64,000 nt of DNA from Escherichia coli (GTDB lineage Bacteria; Pseudomonadota; Gammaproteobacteria; Enterobacterales; Enterobacteriaceae). This document shows, piece by piece, positions 19,557 through 52,034 of the stretch (its first letter is position 1; each line of letters opens with the position of its first letter). The stretch lies in NCBI RefSeq assembly GCF_001677475.2, contig NZ_CP015229.1, one strand, 5' to 3'. The notes beneath the pieces are model-generated. The model did no database searches, was not told the origin of the DNA, and worked only from the letters and a program-made list of their open reading frames with translations. The position numbers and the translations under genes were made by a program.

Positions 19557-20264
19557 ATGAATACCCAACGAAAATACGGGAGAACCTGGCATTACCCTTT
19601 CTCCCCAGGCACCACCAGCGATGACCGTATTAACACCGATTACTGGCAGGATTTACAGGCCATCACGCAATTGGTGCACACAGAAAAACTCGACGGTGAA
19701 AATAACTGCCTTAACCGCTACGGCGTGTTTGCCCGTTCCCATGCCGCGCCTACGCAGTCGGCATGGACCTATAAAATTCGCCAACGCTGGCAACTGCTGA
19801 AAAACGATCTCGGCGATCTGGAGTTGTTTGGTGAAAATCTTTATGCCGTCCATTCGATTGAATATCGCGCCCTGGAGCAGGATTTTTATCTGTTTGCCGT
19901 TCGCTGCCAGGATATGTGGCTGAGCTGGGAAGAGGTGCAGTTTTACGCCGCTCTGTTTGATTTCCCCTGCGTTCCCGAAATCTCCGGCCCGCAGCCGGGG
20001 AATGATGAAAAAAGCTGGCAACGTGATTTTCTGGCGCTGACCAATGCGCGCGGCGCGTTCGATCCCTGGGATACGCAAACCGGGCAACCCTGTACGCTGG
20101 AAGGCATTGTCAGCCGAAATCGTGACGCGTTTTCCGTCGCTGACTTTTCGCATAACGTCTTCAAGTATGTGCGCAAAAATCATGTCAAAACCACCGTGCA
20201 CTGGAAACGACACTGGCAACGGGCGCGGATGGCCCATGAGTTCGCTTATGGAGAACAGTCATGA
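19557..20264 (+). CDS. Minimal ATP-dependent polynucleotide ligase (lysine nucleotidyltransferase family, RNA-ligase-like)
   Basis: 235-aa ORF; motif I K44-L-D-G47, motif III-like F91-G-E-N, motif IV E182-G-I-V, motif V K203-Y-V-R-K207 in canonical order. Confidence 0.7.
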
Positions 20265-21373
20265 TTTGGCAGCTTACCGACGACAAACGCTGGTCGACGC
20301 TACGCCAGCGTTTCAGTTGGGTTGAGGAGATGCATCACACGCCACAAGACCCGGAGCATCATGGTGAAGGTGACGTCGGCGTGCATACGGAAATGGTGCT
20401 TAACGCCCTCGTTACTCAGCCAGAATTCCAGCAACTCCCCGCTCAACAGCAGGAAGTTTTATGGGCGGCGGCGTTATTGCATGATGTTGAAAAGCGCAGC
20501 ACTACCGTGCAGGAAAACGGACGTATTCAGTCTCCAGGCCATGCTCGTCGGGGCGAACTGACGGCCCGACAAATTTTATGGCGCGATATCCCAACGCCGT
20601 TCGTGCTACGCGAGCAAATTGTTGCGCTGGTGCGTCTGCATGGGTTACCGCTATGGTTACTGGAACGTCCGGAACCGGAGCGTTTGCTGCTCACGGCTGC
20701 AATGCGCATCGACACGCGTCTGCTCGCTTTGCTTGCTCGTGCCGACCTGCTTGGTCGCCAAAGCCCGGATCAGCAATCAATGCTGGAACGCATCGATCTG
20801 TTCGAGCTGTTTTGCCATGAGCAACAATGCTGGGGAAAAGTGCGCCCGTTCGTTTCTGATTCCGCACGCTGGCACTACCTGACTCATGAGCAAAGTTCTC
20901 CTGATTTTGTTCCCTGGGGGGCTGAACCTTTTGAGGTTATTTTGCTGTGTGGCTTACCGGGTATGGGCAAAGATCGCTATATCAGTGAACAGTGCCAGGG
21001 AATGGACGTTATCAGCCTTGATGATATGCGGCGGCGAATCAATGCCAGCCCGGACGACAAAACCGCCACCGGGCGTATTGTGCAACAGGCAAAAGAAGAG
21101 GCGCGCGTTTTTTTACGCCAGAAAAAGCCGTTCATCTGGAATGCAACGAACATTACCCGCCAGCTGCGTAGCCAGCTCATCAGCTTGTTTACGGCCTACG
21201 GTGCAAGGGTAAAAATTATCTATCTGGAAGTGCCGTGGGCACAATGGAAGCAGCAAAATGCCAGGCGTGTGTATGCAGTTCCTGAAGTGGTCGTAATGCG
21301 GATGGCCTCAAGGCTGGAAGTTCCTCAACCTGATGAAGCACATAGCGTGGAGTATCGGGTGATTGAAAGGTAA
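20261..21373 (+). CDS. HD-domain phosphoesterase fused to a T4-Pnk-like 5'-OH polynucleotide kinase (HD-Pnk end-healing enzyme)
   Basis: 370-aa ORF; N-terminal HD signature ([11 protein letters not shown] ... LLHDVEK); C-terminal P-loop GLPGMGKD then [24 protein letters not shown] and [16 protein letters not shown], matching T4 Pnk as recalled; start overlaps the ligase stop (ATGA). Confidence 0.7.
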
Positions 21374-21379
21374 AAAAAC

Positions 21380-21416
21380 CGGGCGGTGCTGTCACCTGCC
21401 CGGCTTCTTTTGTTCC
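21380..21416. terminator. Probable bidirectional terminator between the HD-Pnk gene and convergent luxS
   Basis: A-run, ccgggcgg...cctgcccgg imperfect hairpin, then cttcttttgtt, in the 48-bp gap between two convergent stops. Confidence 0.5.
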
Positions 21417-21421
21417 ACTGA

Positions 21422-21937
21422 CTAAATGTGCAGTTCTTGCAACTTCTCTTTCGGCAGCGCCAGCTCTTCGTTGCTGTTGATGCGTACGTCACGTTCCAGA
21501 ATGCTACGCGCAATATCCTGCGCTTCCTGCAACGAGTGCATCTGGTAAGTGCCACACTGGTAGACGTTCAGTTCTGGGATCTGATTCTGATCCTGCACTT
21601 TCAGCACGTCTTCCATTGCCGCTTTCCAGGCATCAGCAACACGCTGCTCATCTGGCGTACCAATCAGACTCATATAAAAACCGGTGCGGCAGCCCATTGG
21701 CGAGATATCGATAATCTCTACACCATTACCGTTAAGATGGTTACGCATAAAACCAGCAAACAGGTGCTCCAGGGTATGGATCCCTCTTTCTGGCATCACT
21801 TCTTTGTTCGGCACGCAGAAGCGCAGATCGAACACGGTGATTGCGTCGCCATGCGGGGTGTTCATTGTTTTCGCCACCCGAACTGCAGGCGCTTCCATCC
21901 GGGTATGATCGACTGTGAAGCTATCTAACAACGGCAT
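21422..21937 (-). CDS. luxS: S-ribosylhomocysteine lyase LuxS
   Basis: 171-aa ORF; recognised LuxS sequence incl. metal-binding HTLEHL. Confidence 0.93.
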
Positions 21938-22005
21938 TTAGCCACCTCCGGTAATTTTTTTAAAAATTTTCTGAACTCTTTCTTCCCAGGCGAGTCTGAG
22001 TATAT

Positions 22006-22079
22006 GAAAGACGCGCATTTGTTATCATCATCCCTGAATTCAGAGATGAAATTTTGGCCACTCACGAGTGGCCTTTTTC
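22006..22079 (+). ncRNA. micA: MicA (SraD) small regulatory RNA
   Basis: Recognised sequence gaaagacgcgcatttgttatcatcatccctgaattcagagatgaaattttggccactcacgagtggcctttttc with terminal hairpin; between luxS and gshA on the opposite strand. Confidence 0.75.
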
Positions 22080-22086
22080 TTTTCTG

Positions 22087-23670
<1,584 letters not shown>

Positions 23671-23715
23671 TTAATTAGCATAACTGTAATGGTGACCATA
23701 TGTGCAGGCCTACAA

Positions 23716-24144
23716 TTAGTGCCACCACATCATGCCCTGAACGGTCGCTGCTGCAACTGCAACATAGCGTAACGCTTTACCAAGGCACAAAAAAAAGATT
23801 ACCGGCCCCCAGGAGATGCGCATCCATCCCGCTAACAGACACAGTAAATCGCCAACTACGGGCATCCAGCTTAATAATAGCGTGACTGCACCATAGCGTT
23901 TCAGCCAGCCAGTAGCTTTCTCTTGCCAGCGCGATGTTTTACGCAATGGAAAGAAACGCCCAAGGATAACGTTAGTTAACCCTCCAAGGCTATTACCCAT
24001 TGTTGCTGTTAAAACTAAAACCCAGGGATGACTGATCCCGGAAAGCAACATTGCCACCAGCACGACTTCGGAGTTGCCGGGTAATAGTGTAGCGCTGAGA
24101 AAACTACTGGCAAACAACGAGAAAAGCGATAACGCTTCACTCAC
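23716..24144 (-). CDS. yqaA: DedA/SNARE-associated family inner-membrane protein YqaA
   Basis: 142-aa hydrophobic ORF; synteny. Confidence 0.85.
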   Translation of the reverse strand: MSEALSLFSLFASSFLSATLLPGNSEVVLVAMLLSGISHPWVLVLTATMGNSLGGLTNVILGRFFPLRKTSRWQEKATGWLKRYGAVTLLLSWMPVVGDLLCLLAGWMRISWGPVIFFLCLGKALRYVAVAAATVQGMMWWH

Positions 24145-24707
24145 AGCAAGCGAACATCCACAGCGTCCATGCCTGCTGCGCGGGCCGCCTGAATACCGAA
24201 ATCGGCATCTTCAAAGACCACACACTGTGTCGGTTGCACGCCCATACGCTGCGCGCACAACAAAAATGTGTCTGGCGCGGGTTTATGGTGTTTGACGTGA
24301 TCGGCAGCGACGACGGCGTCAAAATAACGGCGTAATCCCAGGTGCGCCAGCAATGCCTCAGCGATGGCGCTTTCACTCCCCGTTCCTACAGCCATTGGGC
24401 GACGACCATGCCAACTTTTCACCACTTCAACAAGAGGAAGCGGCTCGACACTATCCAGCAGCATACTTCTTACTGCTTCTGTTTTTTCACGCGCTAACGC
24501 ATGCGGGTCGAGATCGGCCTGATTCAGCTCAATAATCGCCTGAGCAATACGCCAGGTGGGCGAGCCATTAAGCGCAATCATTGCCTGAACATCGTACTGA
24601 AGACCGTAGTGCCCTAATACTTCGCGCCACGCTTTACGGTGCGTAGGCTCCGTATCCAGGATTGTGCCATCCATATCAAAAATTAAACCTGCATAACGCT
24701 CGTACAT
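24141..24707 (-). CDS. yqaB: HAD-superfamily sugar phosphatase YqaB
   Basis: 188-aa ORF; HAD motif I FDMDGTILDTE. Confidence 0.88.
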   Translation of the reverse strand: MYERYAGLIFDMDGTILDTEPTHRKAWREVLGHYGLQYDVQAMIALNGSPTWRIAQAIIELNQADLDPHALAREKTEAVRSMLLDSVEPLPLVEVVKSWHGRRPMAVGTGSESAIAEALLAHLGLRRYFDAVVAADHVKHHKPAPDTFLLCAQRMGVQPTQCVVFEDADFGIQAARAAGMDAVDVRLL

Positions 24708-24917
24708 GGTCTTCTCGCAAGTCGAAAAATATGACGCTACTTTAGCGTAATTGCTTGATTTTGTCGCTGATGGCGAAGGAGAAGAAAATTCAGGAAATAG
24801 ATAAAGTAGTTATTTAGAAATGAGATATTTTTGAAGGAAATTTGTGGGAGAAGATGGTGCCTGCGGTTAGTACTGCTACCTCTTCGATACCTTCATTGCT
24901 GAAGATTACGGAGAATA

Positions 24918-24994
24918 TGGTGCATCCGGGAGGATTCGAACCTCCGACCGCTCGGTTCGTAGCCGAGTACTCTATCCAGCTGAGCTACGGATGC
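24918..24994 (-). tRNA. argQ: tRNA-Arg (ACG), copy 1
   Basis: Reverse complement gives a 77-nt tRNA ending in CCA with recognised tRNA-Arg sequence; symbol assigned by position. Confidence 0.9.
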
Positions 24995-25096
24995 ATCGGG
25001 AAAACTTATTTTACTGCTGATATTGATACCGCTACTAAAGCCATATCAAATAAGAAAATCCATCTTAACCATCATCACTGATGATTACGGAGAATA

Positions 25097-25173
25097 TGGT
25101 GCATCCGGGAGGATTCGAACCTCCGACCGCTCGGTTCGTAGCCGAGTACTCTATCCAGCTGAGCTACGGATGC
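25097..25173 (-). tRNA. argZ: tRNA-Arg (ACG), copy 2
   Basis: Identical 77-nt repeat. Confidence 0.9.
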
Positions 25174-25235
25174 ATCGGGAAATTTATTTTACTGCTGATA
25201 TTGATACCGCTACTAAAGCCATATCAAGTAAGAGA

Positions 25236-25312
25236 TGGTGCATCCGGGAGGATTCGAACCTCCGACCGCTCGGTTCGTAGCCGAGTACTCTATCCAGCTG
25301 AGCTACGGATGC
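25236..25312 (-). tRNA. argY: tRNA-Arg (ACG), copy 3
   Basis: Identical 77-nt repeat. Confidence 0.9.
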
Positions 25313-25374
25313 ATCGGGAAACTTACTTTACTGCAGATTTTTTGATACCGCTACTAAAGCCGTATCAAGTAAGA

Positions 25375-25395
25375 GATGGTGCATCCGGGAGGATT
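25375..25395 (-). pseudogene. Truncated tRNA-Arg fragment (3'-terminal ~21 nt only)
   Basis: gatggtgcatccgggaggatt matches the 3' end of the tRNA-Arg repeat, then diverges into spacer-like sequence. Confidence 0.6.
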
Positions 25396-25511
25396 ACTCG
25401 CCTTGCGGCTCGCCCTTCGGGCCGTTGCTAAAGCAACGTTATCCTTCCTGGTGCTTGCGGCTAGTACCGCCACCTCTTCCACATCTTCATCGCTGAAGAT
25501 TACGGATAATA

Positions 25512-25588
25512 TGGTGCATCCGGGAGGATTCGAACCTCCGACCGCTCGGTTCGTAGCCGAGTACTCTATCCAGCTGAGCTACGGATGC
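25512..25588 (-). tRNA. argV: tRNA-Arg (ACG), copy 4
   Basis: Identical 77-nt repeat. Confidence 0.9.
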
Positions 25589-25591
25589 AAA

Positions 25592-25684
25592 TGGCGGTGA
25601 GGCGGGGATTCGAACCCCGGATGCAGCTTTTGACCGCATACTCCCTTAGCAGGGGAGCGCCTTCAGCCTCTCGGCCACCTCACC
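25592..25684 (-). tRNA. serV: tRNA-Ser (GCU)
   Basis: 93-nt long-variable-arm tRNA; reverse complement matches the tRNA-Ser(GCU) sequence as recalled. Confidence 0.88.
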
Positions 25685-25998
25685 ACACGCCTCTTACGAG
25701 TGCTTCGAAGAACTTGTTTATCGCTCATCGTCGCTGCGTGGCGCACATATTACTTTCTGAGACTTATAAGTCAAACAATTTTTCCCACACTTTTATCGTT
25801 TGCACACTTCACGCTCAATTAGTCTGTAAAAACGTCAAAAAGAGTGTTTTATCAACAGAAAAACGGAGGTCTGTCAGATAGCAGTAATGCAAAAAAATGG
25901 AGACTTAAGTTGAATGAACGGGAGTAAAGCGAAAAGACAATGGAGTGAAGAAGAAATTTGAGGGTGCGTCTCACCGATAAAGATGAGACGCGGAAAGA

Positions 25999-26184
25999 TT
26001 AGTAACTGGACTGCTGGGATTTTTCAGCCTGGATACGCTGGTAGATCTCTTCACGGTGAACAGAAACTTCCTTCGGGGCATTTACGCCAATACGTACCTG
26101 GTTGCCCTTTACCCCTAAAACTGTCACGGTGACCTCATCCCCAATCATGAGGGTCTCACCAACTCGACGAGTCAGAATCAGCAT
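25999..26184 (-). CDS. csrA: Carbon storage regulator CsrA
   Basis: 61-aa [64 protein letters not shown] recognised in full. Confidence 0.97.
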
Positions 26185-26418
26185 TCTTTGCTCCTTGAAA
26201 GATTAAAAGAGTCGGGTCTCTCTGTATCCCGGCATTATCCATCATATAACGCCAAAAAGTAAGCAATGACAAACACATTACATGTAAGCAGTCATGGCAT
26301 TACATTCTGTTAAACCTAAGTTTAGCCGATATACACAACTTCAACCTGACTTTATCGTTGTCGATAGCGTTAATGCGAATGCCGTGAAGCGAGTCCACGG
26401 CATTGCCTGACGCTTATA

Positions 26419-29049
26419 TTATTGCAATTTCGCGCTGACCCAGCCTTTCACACTGGCTAACGCTGCAGGTAAGGCCGCAGCATCCGTACCACCGGCTTGC
26501 GCCATGTCAGGACGTCCACCACCCTTGCCGCCCACCTGCTGAGCGACCACACCAATCAGTTCCCCTGCTTTCACACGATCTGTGACGTCCTTAGATACGC
26601 CTGCAATCAGAGAAACCTTACCTTCGACTACCGTTGCCAGCACGATAATTGTCGACCCCAGCTGATTTTTTAAATCGTCAACCATGGTACGCAACATTTT
26701 CGGCTCAACACCGCTAAGCTCGCTAACCAACAGCTTAACACCATTAACATCAATTGCCTTACTGGAAAGATTTGCGCTCTCCTGTGCGGCAGCTTGTTCT
26801 TTAAGCTGTTGTAACTCTTTTTCCAGCTGACGCGTACGTTCCAGTACTGAGCGCACTTTATCAGCCAGATTATTGCTATCGCCTTTCAGCAGATGCGCGA
26901 CTTCGCTTAAGCGATCGCTGTCTGCATGAACGGTCGCGATAGCGCCTTCTCCGGTTACCGCTTCGATACGACGAACGCCTGCAGCAGTACCCGATTCAGA
27001 GATGATGCGGAACAGACCAATATCACCAGTGCGACTGGCGTGAGTACCGCCACACAGCTCGGTGGAGAAATCGCCCATGCTCAGCACGCGTACGCGCTCA
27101 TCATACTTCTCACCAAACAGCGCCATCGCACCTTTCGCTTTCGCCGCTTCGAGATCCATGATGTTGGTTTCGATCGGCAAGTTACGGCGAATCTGTGCGT
27201 TCACCAGGTCTTCGACCGCACGAATCTCTTCTGGTTTCATCGCTTCGTTGTGTGAGAAGTCGAAGCGCAGCACTTTGTCGTTAACCAGTGAACCTTTCTG
27301 CGATACATGAGTACCCAGAACCTGGCGCAGCGCAGCGTGCATCAGGTGCGTTGCGGAGTGATTCAGACGAATACGGGCGCGAAGAGCCTCATCAACATCA
27401 GCCTGCACCGCGTCGCCCACTTTCAGAGAACCCGCAGCAAGTTTACCGATGTGACCAATCGCCTGGCCGTATTTCTGCGTATCTTCCACCGCAAAGGAGA
27501 AGTTAGCGCCTTTCAGTTCGCCTTTATCACCAACCTGACCGCCGGATTCCGCATAGAATGGCGTTTGATCCAGCACGACCACAGCTTCCTGGCCTGCATT
27601 GATGGCATCAACCGCTTTACCATCAACAAACAGCGCGGTCACTTTGCCGTTCAGTTCCAGATGGTCATAGCCTTTAAATTCAGATGCGCTGTCAACACGG
27701 ATCATTGCGTTGTAATCGGCACCAAAGCCGCTGGCTTCGCGCGCGCGACGACGCTGCTCTTCCATTGCTGCTTCGAAACCAGCTTCGTCAACTTTGATGT
27801 TGCGCTCACGACAAACATCAGCCGTCAGGTCAACCGGGAAGCCATAGGTGTCGTACAGACGGAAAGCCGTTTCACCATCCAGCGTATCACCAGAAAGTTT
27901 TGCCAGCTCTTCATCCAGCAGCGCCAGACCGCGCTCCAGAGTACGGGCAAACTGCTCTTCTTCAGTCTTCAGCACCTGCTCAACCTGCGCCTGCTGGCGT
28001 TTCAGGTCTTCACCCGCAGAGCCCATTACGTCGATCAGCGGACCAACCAGTTTGTAGAAGAAGGTTTCTTTCGCGCCCAGCATATTGCCGTGACGCACTG
28101 CGCGACGAATGATACGACGCAGTACATAACCACGGTTTTCATTGGACGGCATTACGCCATCCGCGATCAGGAACGCACAAGAACGAATGTGGTCAGCGAT
28201 TACGCGCAGCGATTTATTGCTCAGATCGGTCGCGCCAGTGACTTTCGCTACCGCCTGGATCAGCGTGCGGAACAGGTCGATGTCATAGTTAGAGTTAACG
28301 TGTTGCAGCACCGCAGCAATACGCTCCAGACCCATACCGGTATCTACAGACGGCTTCGGCAGCGGTTCCATCGTGCCATCTGCCTGGCGGTTGAACTGCA
28401 TGAAGACGATGTTCCAGATCTCAATGTAGCGATCGCCGTCTTCTTCCGGACTTCCCGGAGGGCCACCCCAAATGTGGTCGCCGTGATCGTAGAAGATTTC
28501 GGTGCACGGGCCGCACGGACCAGTGTCACCCATCTGCCAGAAGTTGTCAGATGCGTATGGCGCACCTTTGTTATCGCCGATGCGAATAATACGTTCGCGC
28601 GGGATCCCTACTTCTTTTTCCCAGATTTCGTAGGCTTCGTCGTCGCTTTCATAGACGGTAACCCACAGACGCTCTTTCGGCAGGGCAAACCATTTTTCAC
28701 TGGTCAGCAGTTCCCATGCAAACTGAATGGCATCGTGTTTGAAATAGTCGCCGAAGCTGAAGTTGCCCAGCATTTCGAAGAAGGTATGGTGACGCGCGGT
28801 GTAACCGACGTTTTCCAGGTCGTTGTGTTTACCACCCGCACGCACGCAGCGTTGGGAAGTGGTAGCGCGGGAATAATTACGCTTGTCGAGCCCAAGGAAC
28901 ACATCCTTGAACTGGTTCATCCCGGCGTTGGTAAACAACAAAGTTGGGTCGTTATGGGGTACCAGGGAGCTGCTGGCAACTACCTGATGTCCCTTACTAT
29001 GGAAAAAGTCGAGAAACGCCTGACGGATCTCAGCGGTGCTCTTGCTCAT
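26419..29049 (-). CDS. alaS: Alanine--tRNA ligase AlaS
   Basis: 876-aa ORF; recognised N-terminus [24 protein letters not shown]. Confidence 0.95.
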
Positions 29050-29176
29050 AATTATCCTGAAATCAAGCTAACGAAATATCGCCACCAGCTCCAGCGTGTC
29101 TTAACCGCCGGGCTGGTAACTGAAAAGTGGGAATAAGATAAGTTTTCTTGACTGGGAAGTAAAATACCGTATGCGT

Positions 29177-29677
29177 TCAGTCGGCAAAATTTCGCCAAAT
29201 ATCCTGGATATCTTCCATCAGATAGCCACGATAGAGCAGAAAACGCTGGATCTTAACTTTTTCTGAAAAGACAGTTGGCAAAGGTTCACCATATTTTCGC
29301 GTCGCCTGATCGCGCGCCAGTGCGCACCAGTCGATGTCACATTCACGCATCGCTTTTTCTGTCGCTTCGCGGGAAATACCTTTCTGATTCAGTTCCTGAC
29401 GAATACGCGCAGGTCCATAACCTTTGCGGCTACGGCTGGCGATAAAGCGCGCAACAAATCGGCTGTCATCAAGATAGCCATGTTCATGGCACCAGGCAAT
29501 AACGCGCTCGTAATCTTCTGCCGTGGCATCAATCTCTTCCGGGCCATTTTTGCCCATAATCGGTGCCGCGAGTTTACGTCGCAGTTCTTGCTCACTGTGA
29601 TCGCGCACCGCCAGAATGCGTACCGCACGATCCAACAGGCGAGCATATGCCGGGCGACGGGACGTTGATTCTGTCAT
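29177..29677 (-). CDS. recX: RecA inhibitor RecX
   Basis: 166-aa ORF downstream of recA on the same strand; recognised RecX sequence. Confidence 0.9.
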
Positions 29678-29837
29678 GGCATATCCTTACAACTTAAAAA
29701 AGCAAAAGGGTCGCAGATGCGACCCAGGTTTTGCTGATAAACAGATTTAATAGTCAATGAGTGTGCAGAATGTTCCCGCAGGCCCAATTCGTTAGAAGAT
29801 CGAGGTGAGAGTAATTTTTCACGCCAGTGCTGACCTG

Positions 29838-29879
29838 TTCCCCTCACCCTCACCCTCTCCCCAAAGGGGCGAGGGGACC
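29838..29879. repeat. GC-rich imperfect palindromic element in the recA-recX spacer
   Basis: ttcccctcaccctcaccctctccccaaaggggcgaggggacc. Confidence 0.5.
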
Positions 29880-29919
29880 GTCCGTGCACACATTATCTAT
29901 TATCATCAATAACGAACGA

Positions 29920-31060
<1,141 letters not shown>

Positions 31061-31558
31061 TCAAGTGTTTTGTAGAAATTGTTGCCACAAGGTCTGCAAT
31101 GCATACGCAGTAGCCCGACGACGCACCGCATCACGGTCACCGCTGAAGCATTCCCGCCGGATAATGCCTTCACCGCGGGCAGTGGCAAAAGCAAACCAGA
31201 CGGTGCCGACAGGCTTCTCTTCACTGCCGCCATCCGGCCCGGCGATACCACTAATAGACACGGCATAATCAGCACGAGCCGCTTTCAGTGCGCCTATCGC
31301 CATTTCCACCACGACGGGTTCGCTCACCGCGCCATGCTGCGCCAGCGTCTCTTCGCGTACGCCGATCATTTGCGCTTTCGCTTCGTTACTGTAGGTGACA
31401 AATCCGCGTTCAAACCAGGCGGAACTGCCGGCAATATCGGTAATCACTTTCGCTACCCAACCACCGGTACAAGACTCAGCAGTTGTTACGGTTGCGCCAC
31501 GGGCTTTCAGCGCCTGCCCAACCTGTTCGCTTAACTGCATCAGTTCACTGTCAGTCAT
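31061..31558 (-). CDS. pncC: NMN amidohydrolase PncC (YgaD)
   Basis: CinA-C-domain-like ORF (31061..31561 in the track) directly upstream of recA. Confidence 0.85.
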   Translation of the reverse strand: MTDSELMQLSEQVGQALKARGATVTTAESCTGGWVAKVITDIAGSSAWFERGFVTYSNEAKAQMIGVREETLAQHGAVSEPVVVEMAIGALKAARADYAVSISGIAGPDGGSEEKPVGTVWFAFATARGEGIIRRECFSGDRDAVRRRATAYALQTLWQQFLQNT

Positions 31559-31702
31559 CACAACCTCTGTCAGTCAAAAATTTATGCCGGACAAGATAGC
31601 ACTTTCGTCAGGAAGATGGTGTTGGCGTTGCAATTTTACGAGGAGGATTCAGAAAAAAGCTGATTAGCCAGAGGGAAGCTCACGCCCCCCTCTTGCAAAT
31701 AG

Positions 31703-32788
31703 TTACTGCACGCGCGCCAGCGCCACGGCTTGTCCTAACTGCCAGACCGCCATTGCGTAATGGGTGCTGTGGTTATAACGGGTAATGGTGTAGAAGTTCG
31801 GCAGACCGTACCAGTACTGGTAACCTGTTCCAACATCCAGACGCAGCAGGCTGGCTTGTTGATGGTTGCCTAGCGGCTGCTGTGGCGTTAAACCTGCCGC
31901 GGCAAGCTGCGAAATGCTGTACTTGGTTTTGAAGCCATTTGGCAAGCCTGGAGCCTGACCGTTTGCCATTACCGCGACCTGATCGCCTTTCACCCAGCCG
32001 TGCGCTTTGAAATAATTCGCCACGCTACCGATCGCATCAACCGGATCCCACAGGTTGATATGCCCGTCGCCGCTGAAATCTACCGCATATTGTTTGTAAG
32101 ACGACGGCATAAACTGTCCGTAGCCCATCGCCCCGGCAAAGGAACCTTTCAGATTGAGCGGATCGTCCTGCTCGTCACGCGCCATCAGCAGGAAGGTTTC
32201 CAGCTCGCCAGAGAAATACTCCGCGCGGCGTGGGTAGTTAAATGACAGCGTTGCCAGCGCATCGAGGATGCGAGTTTTCCCCATCACGCGCCCCCAGCGG
32301 GTTTCAACGCCGATAATCCCGACGATAATTTCCGGCGGTACGCCATACACCTGCCACGCGCGATTCAACGCATCTTCATACTGATTCCAGAAAACCACAC
32401 CGTTCTGCACGTTGTCCGGCGTAATAAATTTTTTGCGATAACGCAGCCATGCGCCGTTCGGACCTGATGGCGGTTTCACCGATGTGGTTGGTGCCTGGTT
32501 ATCCATCAGCCGCAGTACCGAATCCAGACGTTTCGCCTGGGAGAGAATTTCCTGCAACTGCTGACGATCGAAACCGTGTTTGTTCACCATTTTGTCGATG
32601 AACTGCTGGGCATTCGGGTTATTGGCGAAGTCACCGCCCATCTGCATCACATTGTGCTGCGGCTCAAGCAGGAAGCCGCCAGACGGCGTTCCGGTGGTCG
32701 TATCAGTCTCAGTAGGTTTTGGCTTGCTGCTACAGGCGGCAAGCAACACAAAAAGGGGAAGCAATGTTACATAACGACGCTTGAACAT
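31703..32788 (-). CDS. mltB: Membrane-bound lytic murein transglycosylase B
   Basis: ORF 31703..32893; recognised lipoprotein start MFKRRYVTLLPLFVLLAACSS at internal Met. Confidence 0.88.
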   Translation of the reverse strand: MFKRRYVTLLPLFVLLAACSSKPKPTETDTTTGTPSGGFLLEPQHNVMQMGGDFANNPNAQQFIDKMVNKHGFDRQQLQEILSQAKRLDSVLRLMDNQAPTTSVKPPSGPNGAWLRYRKKFITPDNVQNGVVFWNQYEDALNRAWQVYGVPPEIIVGIIGVETRWGRVMGKTRILDALATLSFNYPRRAEYFSGELETFLLMARDEQDDPLNLKGSFAGAMGYGQFMPSSYKQYAVDFSGDGHINLWDPVDAIGSVANYFKAHGWVKGDQVAVMANGQAPGLPNGFKTKYSISQLAAAGLTPQQPLGNHQQASLLRLDVGTGYQYWYGLPNFYTITRYNHSTHYAMAVWQLGQAVALARVQ

Positions 32789-46737: not shown

Positions 46738-49628
<2,891 letters not shown>

Positions 49629-49636
49629 GTAACATT

Positions 49637-49718
49637 GCCGGATGTGGCGTGAACGCCTTATCCGGCTTACATAGTTCGTGCGACATGTAGGCCCGATAAG
49701 CGCAGCGCATCGGGCAAT
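49637..49718. repeat. REP/BIME palindromic repeats downstream of ascB
   Basis: gccggatgtggcgtgaacgccttatccggcttaca and atgtaggcccgataagcgcagcgcatcgggcaat. Confidence 0.65.
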
Positions 49719-49741
49719 CTGGAGTTTGGCATCAGTCAAAA

Positions 49742-50161
49742 TCAAAGAAACCATTCCGGCTTAACGCCAAATCGGGCTGAAAGTGCCTTAATATGGGATA
49801 TTGTCAGGGATCGTTGCCCAGACAAAATCTGACTGACCAGGGATTTAGAGCCGATTTCGTTCTTCAAATCCGCGTAGGTCAGATTATGTTGATCAATCAG
49901 CGTACGAAGTAACGCCACGCCAACCGGCATTGCTGCAACGGCTTTGTCGAACTCTGCAAACTTTTCGTTATTGTTTTCATATTCTGCAATGCGGCTCGCC
50001 AGAAAGTCGATAAGTGGATTGGTGTCATCTTCTTCAATCAAATATTCGACCAGTTCCAGTGCTTCACGATAATCATCTTCTGAGTCACTGCCTCCCAGAA
50101 AGGGGACTGCATTGACCAGTTCTCTTGTTGCTTTAACAGCGCGTGCAGCATTAGCAGTCAT
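49742..50161 (-). CDS. HigA-like XRE-family HTH antitoxin
   Basis: 139-aa ORF; C-terminal XRE HTH (IGSKSLVSQILSGQRSLTISHIKALSARFGV) and N-terminal region resembling chromosomal HigA (YgjM) as recalled. Confidence 0.65.
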   Translation of the reverse strand: MTANAARAVKATRELVNAVPFLGGSDSEDDYREALELVEYLIEEDDTNPLIDFLASRIAEYENNNEKFAEFDKAVAAMPVGVALLRTLIDQHNLTYADLKNEIGSKSLVSQILSGQRSLTISHIKALSARFGVKPEWFL

Positions 50162-50186
50162 TCTTGGTTCTCTCTGTAGTATCGTG

Positions 50187-50288
50187 TCAGACGCCCACTT
50201 TTCTAAAATGCCAGTTTTGATCGGTATAATAAGGCATGGTCAGGAGAGGTTTCAGCGCCCGCTTTTGTGCGTATTCGCTGTCACTCAT
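50187..50288 (-). pseudogene. 33-codon ORF upstream of the HigA-like gene; possible remnant of a HigB/RelE-type toxin gene
   Basis: MSDSEYAQKRALKPLLTMPYYTDQNWHFRKVGV; stop is 25 nt upstream of the antitoxin ATG; in-frame stop 10 codons upstream of its ATG. Confidence 0.3.
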
Positions 50289-50396
50289 CGGCAGATATTC
50301 GGTAAAGCTGGTGGCCTACGCAGGAAGCACTAAGCTCAATAAAAAAGCGCACATCCCTGTCCTGATTTTCAATTCCCTGAATTCCTTAATGAAGAA

Positions 50397-50867
50397 CTAC
50401 TCTTCTTCCACCGCTAACTGCGCGAAGCCGCCATTCCCTTCCCAGCCTTCCAGTCGTTGATAAACGGTTTCTACCGCATCTTTAATCGGTTGGGTCATCG
50501 GATAGTAAAAGCCGACGATATCCGGCTGGATACCAAGGAAAATCACTTCGCCAATGTCTTCTTTTAACTGGTCGATAAGGTAATTCAACGGCATGTTATG
50601 GGTAGTCATCATAAACATCTCGGCGATGTCATCCGGGTCGATGATGCGGATCTCGCCGGGGTTTAGCCCCATATCCGTGGCGTCGACAATCAGTAACCGC
50701 GTAGGGCGCAGTTCACGGATGGCGACAATGTCGTTTTCCGGTGCGCTACCGCCGTCAATCACCACCCAATTACCTTTCGGCGCGGCGGCGCACTTTTCCG
50801 CCAGCAGCGGACCTGCGCCATCATCGCCCATCATGCTATTGCCAACACAGAGTAAAACGTCAGTCAC
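50397..50867 (-). CDS. hycI: Hydrogenase 3 maturation protease HycI
   Basis: 156-aa ORF; synteny. Confidence 0.9.
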   Translation of the reverse strand: MTDVLLCVGNSMMGDDGAGPLLAEKCAAAPKGNWVVIDGGSAPENDIVAIRELRPTRLLIVDATDMGLNPGEIRIIDPDDIAEMFMMTTHNMPLNYLIDQLKEDIGEVIFLGIQPDIVGFYYPMTQPIKDAVETVYQRLEGWEGNGGFAQLAVEEE

Positions 50868-51270
50868 GCAGTCTCCTCACCATCAAATAGATGGCGTTTT
50901 CCTGATGAATATCATGCAGCATACTTAACAGCATTGTACTCCATTCCTGCTGCTGCGAAGTTTGCGCTGCCCGGGCTTTATCGAATGCGTTGGCCAGCAT
51001 CGGCACATGGTTAATGTCGATGACGATCTCACCATATTTCGGCACGCCTTCCATTTTGCGGCGGGCTTCGCTGCCCGCCTCCAGAGTGGCAATCCATGCC
51101 AGATATTCATCCCACGGGCAGGTGAGCGCCGCTTCCAGGCAATCGATAACCCCAAGGTGGTGACCAATCGCCAGGCTGTAATAGACCACCTGCTGCGCCT
51201 CGGCGGGCGTGGCATCGTTCTCATCAATAAATTTACGGCTCAGTTGACTGAACACCACCTTTTCACTCAT
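50860..51270 (-). CDS. hycH: Formate hydrogenlyase maturation protein HycH
   Basis: 136-aa ORF; synteny. Confidence 0.9.
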
Positions 51271-52034
51271 CGGATACGCGCCTCTTCAACAACATGATTC
51301 AGATGGCTGACAATCTCGTTCAGACGCGGATCGTTTTCCGCTTCCAGCCAGCGTGCAACCTGCTCTTCGCCCTGCCCTAACCGTGTAAGGTAATCATCGG
51401 CAATCTGGCGACCGTAGCGGTAACCCGCCAGGCGACGCGCTTCGCGATCCACTTTCACGCGCAGCGGCTGCACCATATCCGGATGCAGAATCTCTGCCGG
51501 TTGCTCATCCAGTTCGCCTGGCTCACGGGCGTGGATTTTCTGCTCCAGCAGGCCGAGCGCCATTGCAAAGCCGTACAGCGTGGCGGCAGGCGTTGGCGGG
51601 CAACCTGGGATGTAAACATCCACCGGGACGATTTTATCCGTACCGCCCCACACGCAGTAGAGATCGTGGAAAATGCCCCCGCTGTTGCCGCAGGCACCGT
51701 AGGAGATACAGATTTTCGGATCCGGCGCGGACTGCCACGCACGCAGCGCAGGGGATCGCATTGCACGGGTGACCGCGCCGGTAAACAGTAAAATATCCGC
51801 ATGACGCGGGGACGGAACAACTTTAATACCGAAGCGTTCTGCATCGAACAGCGGCGAAAGCGTGGCGAAAATTTCAATTTCGCAGCCGTTGCAGCCACCG
51901 CAGTCCACGCGGTAAACGTAGGCAGAACGTTTGATTTTTTTCAGTAACGACGCCTTCATGCTGGCGATGGATTCATCCACCGTCATCGGAACCGGAATGC
52001 CGTTGGCGTCACGGGGGCCTAATAAATTGCTCAT
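51267..52034 (-). CDS. hycG: Hydrogenase 3 small subunit HycG
   Basis: 255-aa ORF; NuoB-like Fe-S cysteine motifs. Confidence 0.92.

Follow-up and report, generated by a model that had tools for sequence, protein, structure and literature searches.

What raises a question at this locus is the short stretch of DNA that separates hycI from an orphan higA-like gene, since a gap lying where the toxin gene of a higBA operon would be expected could hold what is left of that toxin, or something else entirely. In the window, by which we mean the whole 64-kb stretch of DNA that was analysed, the minus strand carries, in this order, hycI, a 235-bp gap and a gene for a 139-amino-acid HigA-like protein (Table 1), beyond which lie REP-like elements and then, on the opposite strand, ascB. 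The initial annotation had tentatively read the gap as a frameshifted, 5'-truncated higB-like toxin gene, based on a 33-codon ORF and on a second ORF in an adjacent frame, and its description of the DNA was accurate: the 33-codon ORF is present upstream of higA, 25 nt separate its TGA (50189-50187) from the start codon of HigA at 50161, a TAG in the same frame (50318-50316) precedes its own ATG by 10 codons, the adjacent frame terminates where this ORF begins, and the gap, measured from the hycI stop at 50397, is shorter than the 312-bp higB of other strains. Our results, nonetheless, lead to a different reading of the same letters, to which we assign a probability of roughly 0.93, namely that a deletion left at 50162-50396 a chimeric scar in which two gene ends meet, non-functional coding debris and not a frameshifted toxin gene.

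Table 1. Features of the hycI-higA region and of the related full-length gene (window positions unless another sequence is named).
Feature	Position	Strand	Basis or remark
hycI	50397..50867	-	
Spacer, 24 nt, hycI stop to Hyp253 start	50373..50396		
Hyp253 5' remnant, codons 1-61	50191..50372	-	tblastn 82% identity, E 4e-39; aligned with the complete CX05, C10 and ECOD1 genes
Nonsense mutation CAG to TAG, Hyp253 codon 19 (LPAQATS to LPA-stop-ATS)	50316..50318	-	window-specific among alleles examined
Adjacent-frame ORF, 23 codons, ending RFFIELSASCVGHQLYRISADE and stop / MRFFIELSASCVGHQLYRISADE	50281..50352	-	off-frame reading of the Hyp253 5' fragment
33-codon ORF, MSDSEYAQKRALKPLLTMPYYTDQNWHFRKVGV	50187..50288	-	Hyp253 codons 29-61
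Deletion junction	50190..50191		alignment and coordinate mapping; same join in other strains
higB remnant, last 10 codons and stop	50158..50190	-	collinear with the CX05 higB 3' end
Orphan higA, 139 aa, XRE/HTH type, intact	49742..50161	-	ORF; 5IFG_B match
Hyp253, full-length, 253 aa, WP_001026446.1	L001 3544-4305 (CX05)		next to hycI in some E. coli

Some features of the surroundings are worth recording. REP-type palindromic elements occupy window 49623-49735, between ascB and higA, where an Rfam search returned naRNA4 (RF02564) below threshold only (40 bits vs a gathering score of 59.5); no Rfam family matches 50162-50396. Among complete RefSeq E. coli genomes, the best match to the window reaches 98.3% in the alaS-recA region (window 20000-32000) and 96.8% in hycG-hycI (window 50397-52034), so that the lineage of the window is one that these genomes represent poorly. 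Diversity within E. coli is unusually high in the hyc region, where hycI differs by 5-7% between strains, and a 3-bp indel at the hycI 3' end (window 50397-50405) results in a product ending in VEEE in the window and in ST95-32 versus VEE in JJ1887 and A37.

When window 49600-50420 was searched by megablast in 5,426 complete E. coli genomes, the ascB-hycI locus proved to be polymorphic, and the comparison with other strains that the initial annotation had called for was indeed informative, as an intact higB-higA pair sits at this very locus in 1,092 of the 5,426 genomes. In strain CX05, the locus contains higA, an intact 103-aa higB that overlaps higA by ATGA, a 173-bp intergenic region, and a gene for a predicted secreted protein of 253 aa, referred to here as Hyp253; C10 carries higA and a full Hyp253 gene without higB, ECOD1 carries Hyp253 only, strains of the K-12 type have neither higA, higB nor Hyp253, and Z1323CEC0015 has the content of the window, with a 198-bp partial "hypothetical protein" pseudogene called by PGAP. 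The CX05 HigB matches Pfam PF09907 (HigB_toxin) over residues 22-93 of 103 (E 4.5e-23) and the K-12 HigB structure 5IFG_A (E 4.5e-22) and, judging from these matches, is a bona fide HigB. The 173-bp region upstream of it holds a single promoter-like site, TTGTGA-17-TATAGT (L001 3470-3442), and no inverted repeats that could act as HigA operators were found there at seed 6. Relative to ECOD1 (L004 about 1400-1410; alignment A1 columns 130-1040), the CX05 higBA cassette (L001 2640-3530) is flanked by TCAG on both sides, which is compatible with insertion of the cassette as well as with a microhomology-mediated deletion.

The anatomy of the scar was obtained from a five-way DNA alignment (A1) and by mapping coordinates onto CX05. 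With a single gap relative to CX05, the window lacks 1,032 bp (L001 3092-4123), which comprise higB codons 1-93 (279 bp), the entire 173-bp higB-upstream region along with its promoter-like site, and Hyp253 codons 62-253 (the 3' 580 bp). What had been taken for a frameshifted, 5'-truncated toxin gene is instead the product of one clean deletion, which brought two truncated genes together. Coordinate mapping showed the join to be blunt, and a role for microhomology was discarded. Exactly the same join is shared by five divergent strains, namely the window's, Z1323, JJ1887 (ST131), A37, and ST95-32, and by at least 819 of the 5,426 complete E. coli genomes, ST131 and ST95 strains included, when counted with a 90-bp query centred on the join and covered for at least 80%; the junction pattern had 0 matches among GTDB species-representative genomes, the deletion being found only within the E. 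coli collection. These data can be accounted for by an ancestral minus-strand order of hycI, Hyp253, the 173-bp higBA promoter region, higB (103 aa, RelE-fold) and higA, in which one illegitimate-recombination deletion fused Hyp253 codon 61 to the last 10 higB codons. In the C10 allele (L002 2063-2132), the Hyp253 gene is complete (251 aa) and the 3' end of higB survives over about 34 nt or more; because the junction of this allele differs and Hyp253 is kept, higB must have been deleted at this site at least twice.

In terms of frequency, higA was found in 2,508 of the 5,426 genomes, with every match covering at least 80% of the gene, the deleted part of higB in 1,092, and the 3' part of Hyp253 in 1,464. 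Subtraction leaves 1,416 genomes with an orphan higA, the same number obtained in the megablast survey, and the orphan state is commoner than the pair at ascB-hycI. The C10-type deletion accounts for at most about 597 genomes, a figure that also comes from subtraction, given that intact alleles yield two-piece matches that pass the 80% coverage filter of the junction query. Allele counts are not exactly additive, as the 1,464 genomes with the Hyp253 3' part compare to an expectation of up to 1,092 plus about 597, probably because megablast misses divergent Hyp253 alleles.

With regard to higB itself, the remnant reads LTRYYRENQE followed by a stop, vs LTRYYRENKE and stop in CX05, in a third frame that the initial annotation did not mention, and its TGA overlaps the higA ATG as ATGA. 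Megablast DNA homology to intact higB ends at window 50190. Translated searches with tblastn (word size 2, without composition filter, against 50101-50420, using CX05 HigB and K-12 HigB as queries) aligned HigB residues 93-103 to 50193-50161, with E values of 3e-5 for the local region and 0.1 for the whole window; such a search had been suggested as a check on the toxin reading and did recover this tail, while no other frame scored better than E 0.5. The idea of a toxin remnant is therefore right in that higB once lay upstream of higA, was lost, and left a trace, and wrong in the sequence that it named. The RelE-fold core is absent from the window, as codons 1-93 are deleted and PF09907 covers residues 22-93, and no other HigB-like gene or sequence was found within the 64 kb. 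The type II HigBA operon is thus incomplete, with only higA intact and both the toxin and the promoter region gone.

Most of the gap is, on the other hand, the 5' end of the Hyp253 gene. Hyp253 residues 1-61 match by tblastn in the exact frame of the 33-codon ORF, which begins at an internal Met of Hyp253 and whose TGA arises from out-of-frame reading into the higB tail. The stub, starting either with the TTG at 50372 or the ATG at 50354, still encodes the signal peptide M(K/N)IRTGMCAFLLSLVLPAQA. With residues 62-253 deleted and a TAG at codon 19, the copy in the window is a pseudogene; CAG is found at this codon in the other four orphan alleles and in all of the full-length alleles. Both ORFs described in the initial annotation are no more than would be expected of leftover coding sequence, that is, pieces of a truncated gene or readings of it in the wrong frame, and the scar is an ordinary deletion pseudogene in which neither gene end can encode its original product.

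Hyp253 carries a predicted Sec-type signal peptide, read as MNIRTGMCAFLLSLVLPAQA with cleavage before TS, and has homologues in E. albertii, Salmonella and Klebsiella spallanzanii, as well as longer metagenome relatives (343-348 aa) with an extra C-terminal domain; the stretch YLPMSDxEYAQKRALKPLLTMP is conserved across genera (alignment A2). A Pfam search with Hyp253 gave nothing even at E <=10, and NCBIfam searches with HigB, HigA, and Hyp253 gave no useful match, only a spurious sub-threshold one for HigA. An AlphaFold2 model built from a 13-sequence alignment reached a mean pLDDT of only 60, a low confidence, and a Foldseek search of the PDB gave no significant match, the best hits being integrin alpha propellers at E 0.05. 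The motifs DLDRNGIQDLV and DLQGNG (DxDxNG-like) give an FG-GAP-like impression, which is a tentative lead.

To compare selection on the parts of this locus, we used the five junction-bearing alleles (window, Z1323, JJ1887, A37, and ST95-32), which are 5-7% apart in hycI. Among variable codons, 18 were synonymous-only and one was amino-acid-changing in higA, compared to 42 and two in hycI, and six and 11 (stop included) in the Hyp253 stub. Neutrality would give one or fewer changing codons out of 19 in higA with a probability of 7e-11; the counts in the stub, in contrast, agree with neutral change (expected non-synonymous fraction 0.79), and a Fisher test of higA vs the stub gave p = 2.3e-4. 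These codon counts show strong purifying selection on orphan higA, equal to what the neighbouring housekeeping gene hycI experiences in the same five alleles, and the difference between the two parts of the locus means that the stub is decaying while the antitoxin is maintained. HigA from the window matches the K-12 HigA structure 5IFG_B over residues 9-138 (E 2.5e-35), its relatives carry PF01381, and the protein is 100% identical to WP_000126294.1, which occurs both with and without higB alongside; at the DNA level, 8-9 differences are synonymous and 0 are non-synonymous. Since strains with and without the toxin share this one protein, recombination re-importing higA from higB-bearing strains could inflate the selection signal, which is drawn from five alleles.

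Gene calls over the scar vary with the genome. PGAP reports the 61-codon stub as an ordinary CDS in JJ1887, A37, and ST95-32 (L005, L006, and L007, positions 742-927; WP_001312049.1, WP_077634469.1, and WP_015953052.1) and as a pseudogene in Z1323CEC0015, and is therefore inconsistent on one and the same deletion product. In addition, a few rare gene calls of 188-209 aa (P0040, P0042, P0043, P0044, and P0045) contain frameshifts in the stub by which HigA comes to share a reading frame with the signal-peptide N-terminus of Hyp253, one of them being named "HTH-type transcriptional regulator ygjM". In a region that is decaying, such fusions are probably artefacts of indels or of sequencing, and they show that indels accumulate in the stub too.

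How do these observations bear on other explanations for the two small ORFs? That they could together represent a frameshifted, 5'-truncated gene of the higB/RelE family is suggested by their position and orientation, which fit higB, by the fact that higB was indeed lost here, and by a motif, SEYA, that loosely resembles the AEYD of HigB. Both ORFs, however, lie in DNA that is collinear with the Hyp253 N-terminus, at 82% protein identity, and the adjacent frame in particular, offered as a piece of the toxin, is an off-frame Hyp253 fragment devoid of HigB similarity; tblastn with CX05 and K-12 HigB found nothing better than E 0.5 on either the 33-codon ORF or the 23-codon frame, and homology to intact higB stops short of both, which refutes the toxin reading for 50191-50352 and leaves it with next to no probability overall. 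It might also be argued that the truncation gave birth to a functional, stand-alone secreted peptide, of 33 codons in the window and 61 in ST131 and ST95. The 61-codon form does retain a plausible Sec signal peptide, is uninterrupted and annotated as a CDS in JJ1887, A37, and ST95-32, where residual function is conceivable, and keeps a constant 25 nt between its stop and the start codon of higA, a distance that could permit translational coupling. The codon changes in the stub, on the contrary, are consistent with neutrality, frameshift variants exist, the stub is without the conserved 190-residue body of the family, and in the window the TAG at codon 19 leaves a 33-codon ORF that has neither a signal peptide nor an obvious Shine-Dalgarno sequence, so that we consider a functional peptide very unlikely.

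A more subtle alternative, and one that is compatible with the deletion-scar explanation but gives this DNA a function, is that the scar is retained as a non-coding expression platform for orphan higA, with transcription coming from upstream or from a promoter in the stub, and the higB tail supplying the ribosome-binding region. The native higBA promoter was deleted and higA is nevertheless under strong selection, which would require that it be transcribed from upstream; read-through from the hyc operon or from the Hyp253 promoter might provide such transcription, as might a weak, fortuitous sigma-70-like site in the stub. The minus strand shows no terminator-like site from hycI to higA, the hycI stop and the Hyp253 start are only 24 nt apart, and a sigma-70-like site with a 9/12 match does occur at 50255-50226, even though this match is weak and not above chance, three such sites being found in the region vs 1.7 expected. 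The higB tail provides 29 nt upstream of the higA ATG that correspond to the native translation-initiation and ribosome-binding context of higA; these 29 nt do vary, at 1-3 positions between alleles, which speaks against this reading. Both of the independent higB deletions (the window type and the C10 type) spare higA, together with no less than 25-34 nt of the sequence that precedes its ATG. Loss of a toxin with the antitoxin spared is tolerated, whereas the reverse is lethal, and we infer that this is why both deletions took the form they did: the toxin could be lost safely, and the antitoxin would be kept. Altogether, we see an expression platform as a plausible addition to the deletion scar, albeit one that we would not bet on.

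If the deletion scar is debris, as we believe, attention shifts to the gene that it precedes. HigA may have been retained for a useful activity that needs no partner, such as neutralizing related HigB toxins from plasmids or phages, or DNA-binding regulation. Related HigB toxins are in fact found on 1,046 plasmids, mostly from Klebsiella, Leclercia, and Enterobacter, with up to 78.6% identity, and on Cronobacter phage JK004 (76.7%), which makes an anti-addiction role conceivable, a regulatory role being equally possible. In its stronger version, this proposal holds that orphan HigA, and not the scar, is the active part of the locus, as a domesticated anti-addiction immunity protein or as a regulator wired to anaerobic read-through from hyc, and that it is strongly selected in roughly one in four E. 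coli genomes, the sampled ST131 and ST95 strains included, after one deletion took its toxin, promoter and operator; we hold this proposal as a whole to be possible but less likely than not. An anti-addiction role has been discussed for orphan antitoxins in general (PMC7354431). Our literature search on the ascB-hycI higA locus and its four RefSeq protein accessions found no specific publication.

As a toxin remnant, this stretch carries little weight, in that our analysis corrects an annotation-level guess and shows another gene, itself truncated, to make up most of the 235 bp. It gains importance as a base-exact, population-wide case of decay of a chromosomal toxin-antitoxin system, where the toxin and the control region were lost in one step and the antitoxin stays under selection. 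Furthermore, it makes the question of what orphan antitoxins do a testable one in well-studied lineages such as ST131 and ST95, through natural, isogenic-like alleles that carry the pair, the orphan with its neighbour, the orphan with the scar, or an empty site. The selected orphan HigA, rather than the scar, is the part worth following.

Comparison to known systems helps place these findings. The intact CX05 locus shares with the K-12 HigB-HigA system (YgjN-YgjM; 5IFG; PF09907 and XRE-HTH HigA) the toxin-first order, protein sizes of 103 and 139 aa, and the ATGA overlap, and the ascB-hycI system is a paralogue of K-12 HigBA, which sits at fadH-rlmG. Compared to K-12 HigBA, the window retains only the last 10 codons of the toxin and has lost the promoter/operator, hence no toxin-antitoxin system is left. 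As an annotated object, the scar is akin to the deletion-generated chimeric pseudogenes that PGAP labels "incomplete; partial in the middle of a contig"; the corresponding stretch in Z1323CEC0015 is called partial and missing the C-terminus, while the 33-nt higB tail within the scar is missed. An orphan higA has been described at fadH-rlmG in the B2 E. coli strains NRG857c and CFT073 (PMC7232551), and orphan antitoxins have been surveyed in Klebsiella (reviewed in PMC7354431). With known orphan type II antitoxins, for which anti-addiction, regulation, or a mere remnant state have been proposed, the ascB-hycI gene shares the loss of the toxin and the retention of the antitoxin. It differs from them, however, because here the deletion could be reconstructed to the base, it is found in at least 819 genomes, and the antitoxin is under selection while the debris that flanks it is not.
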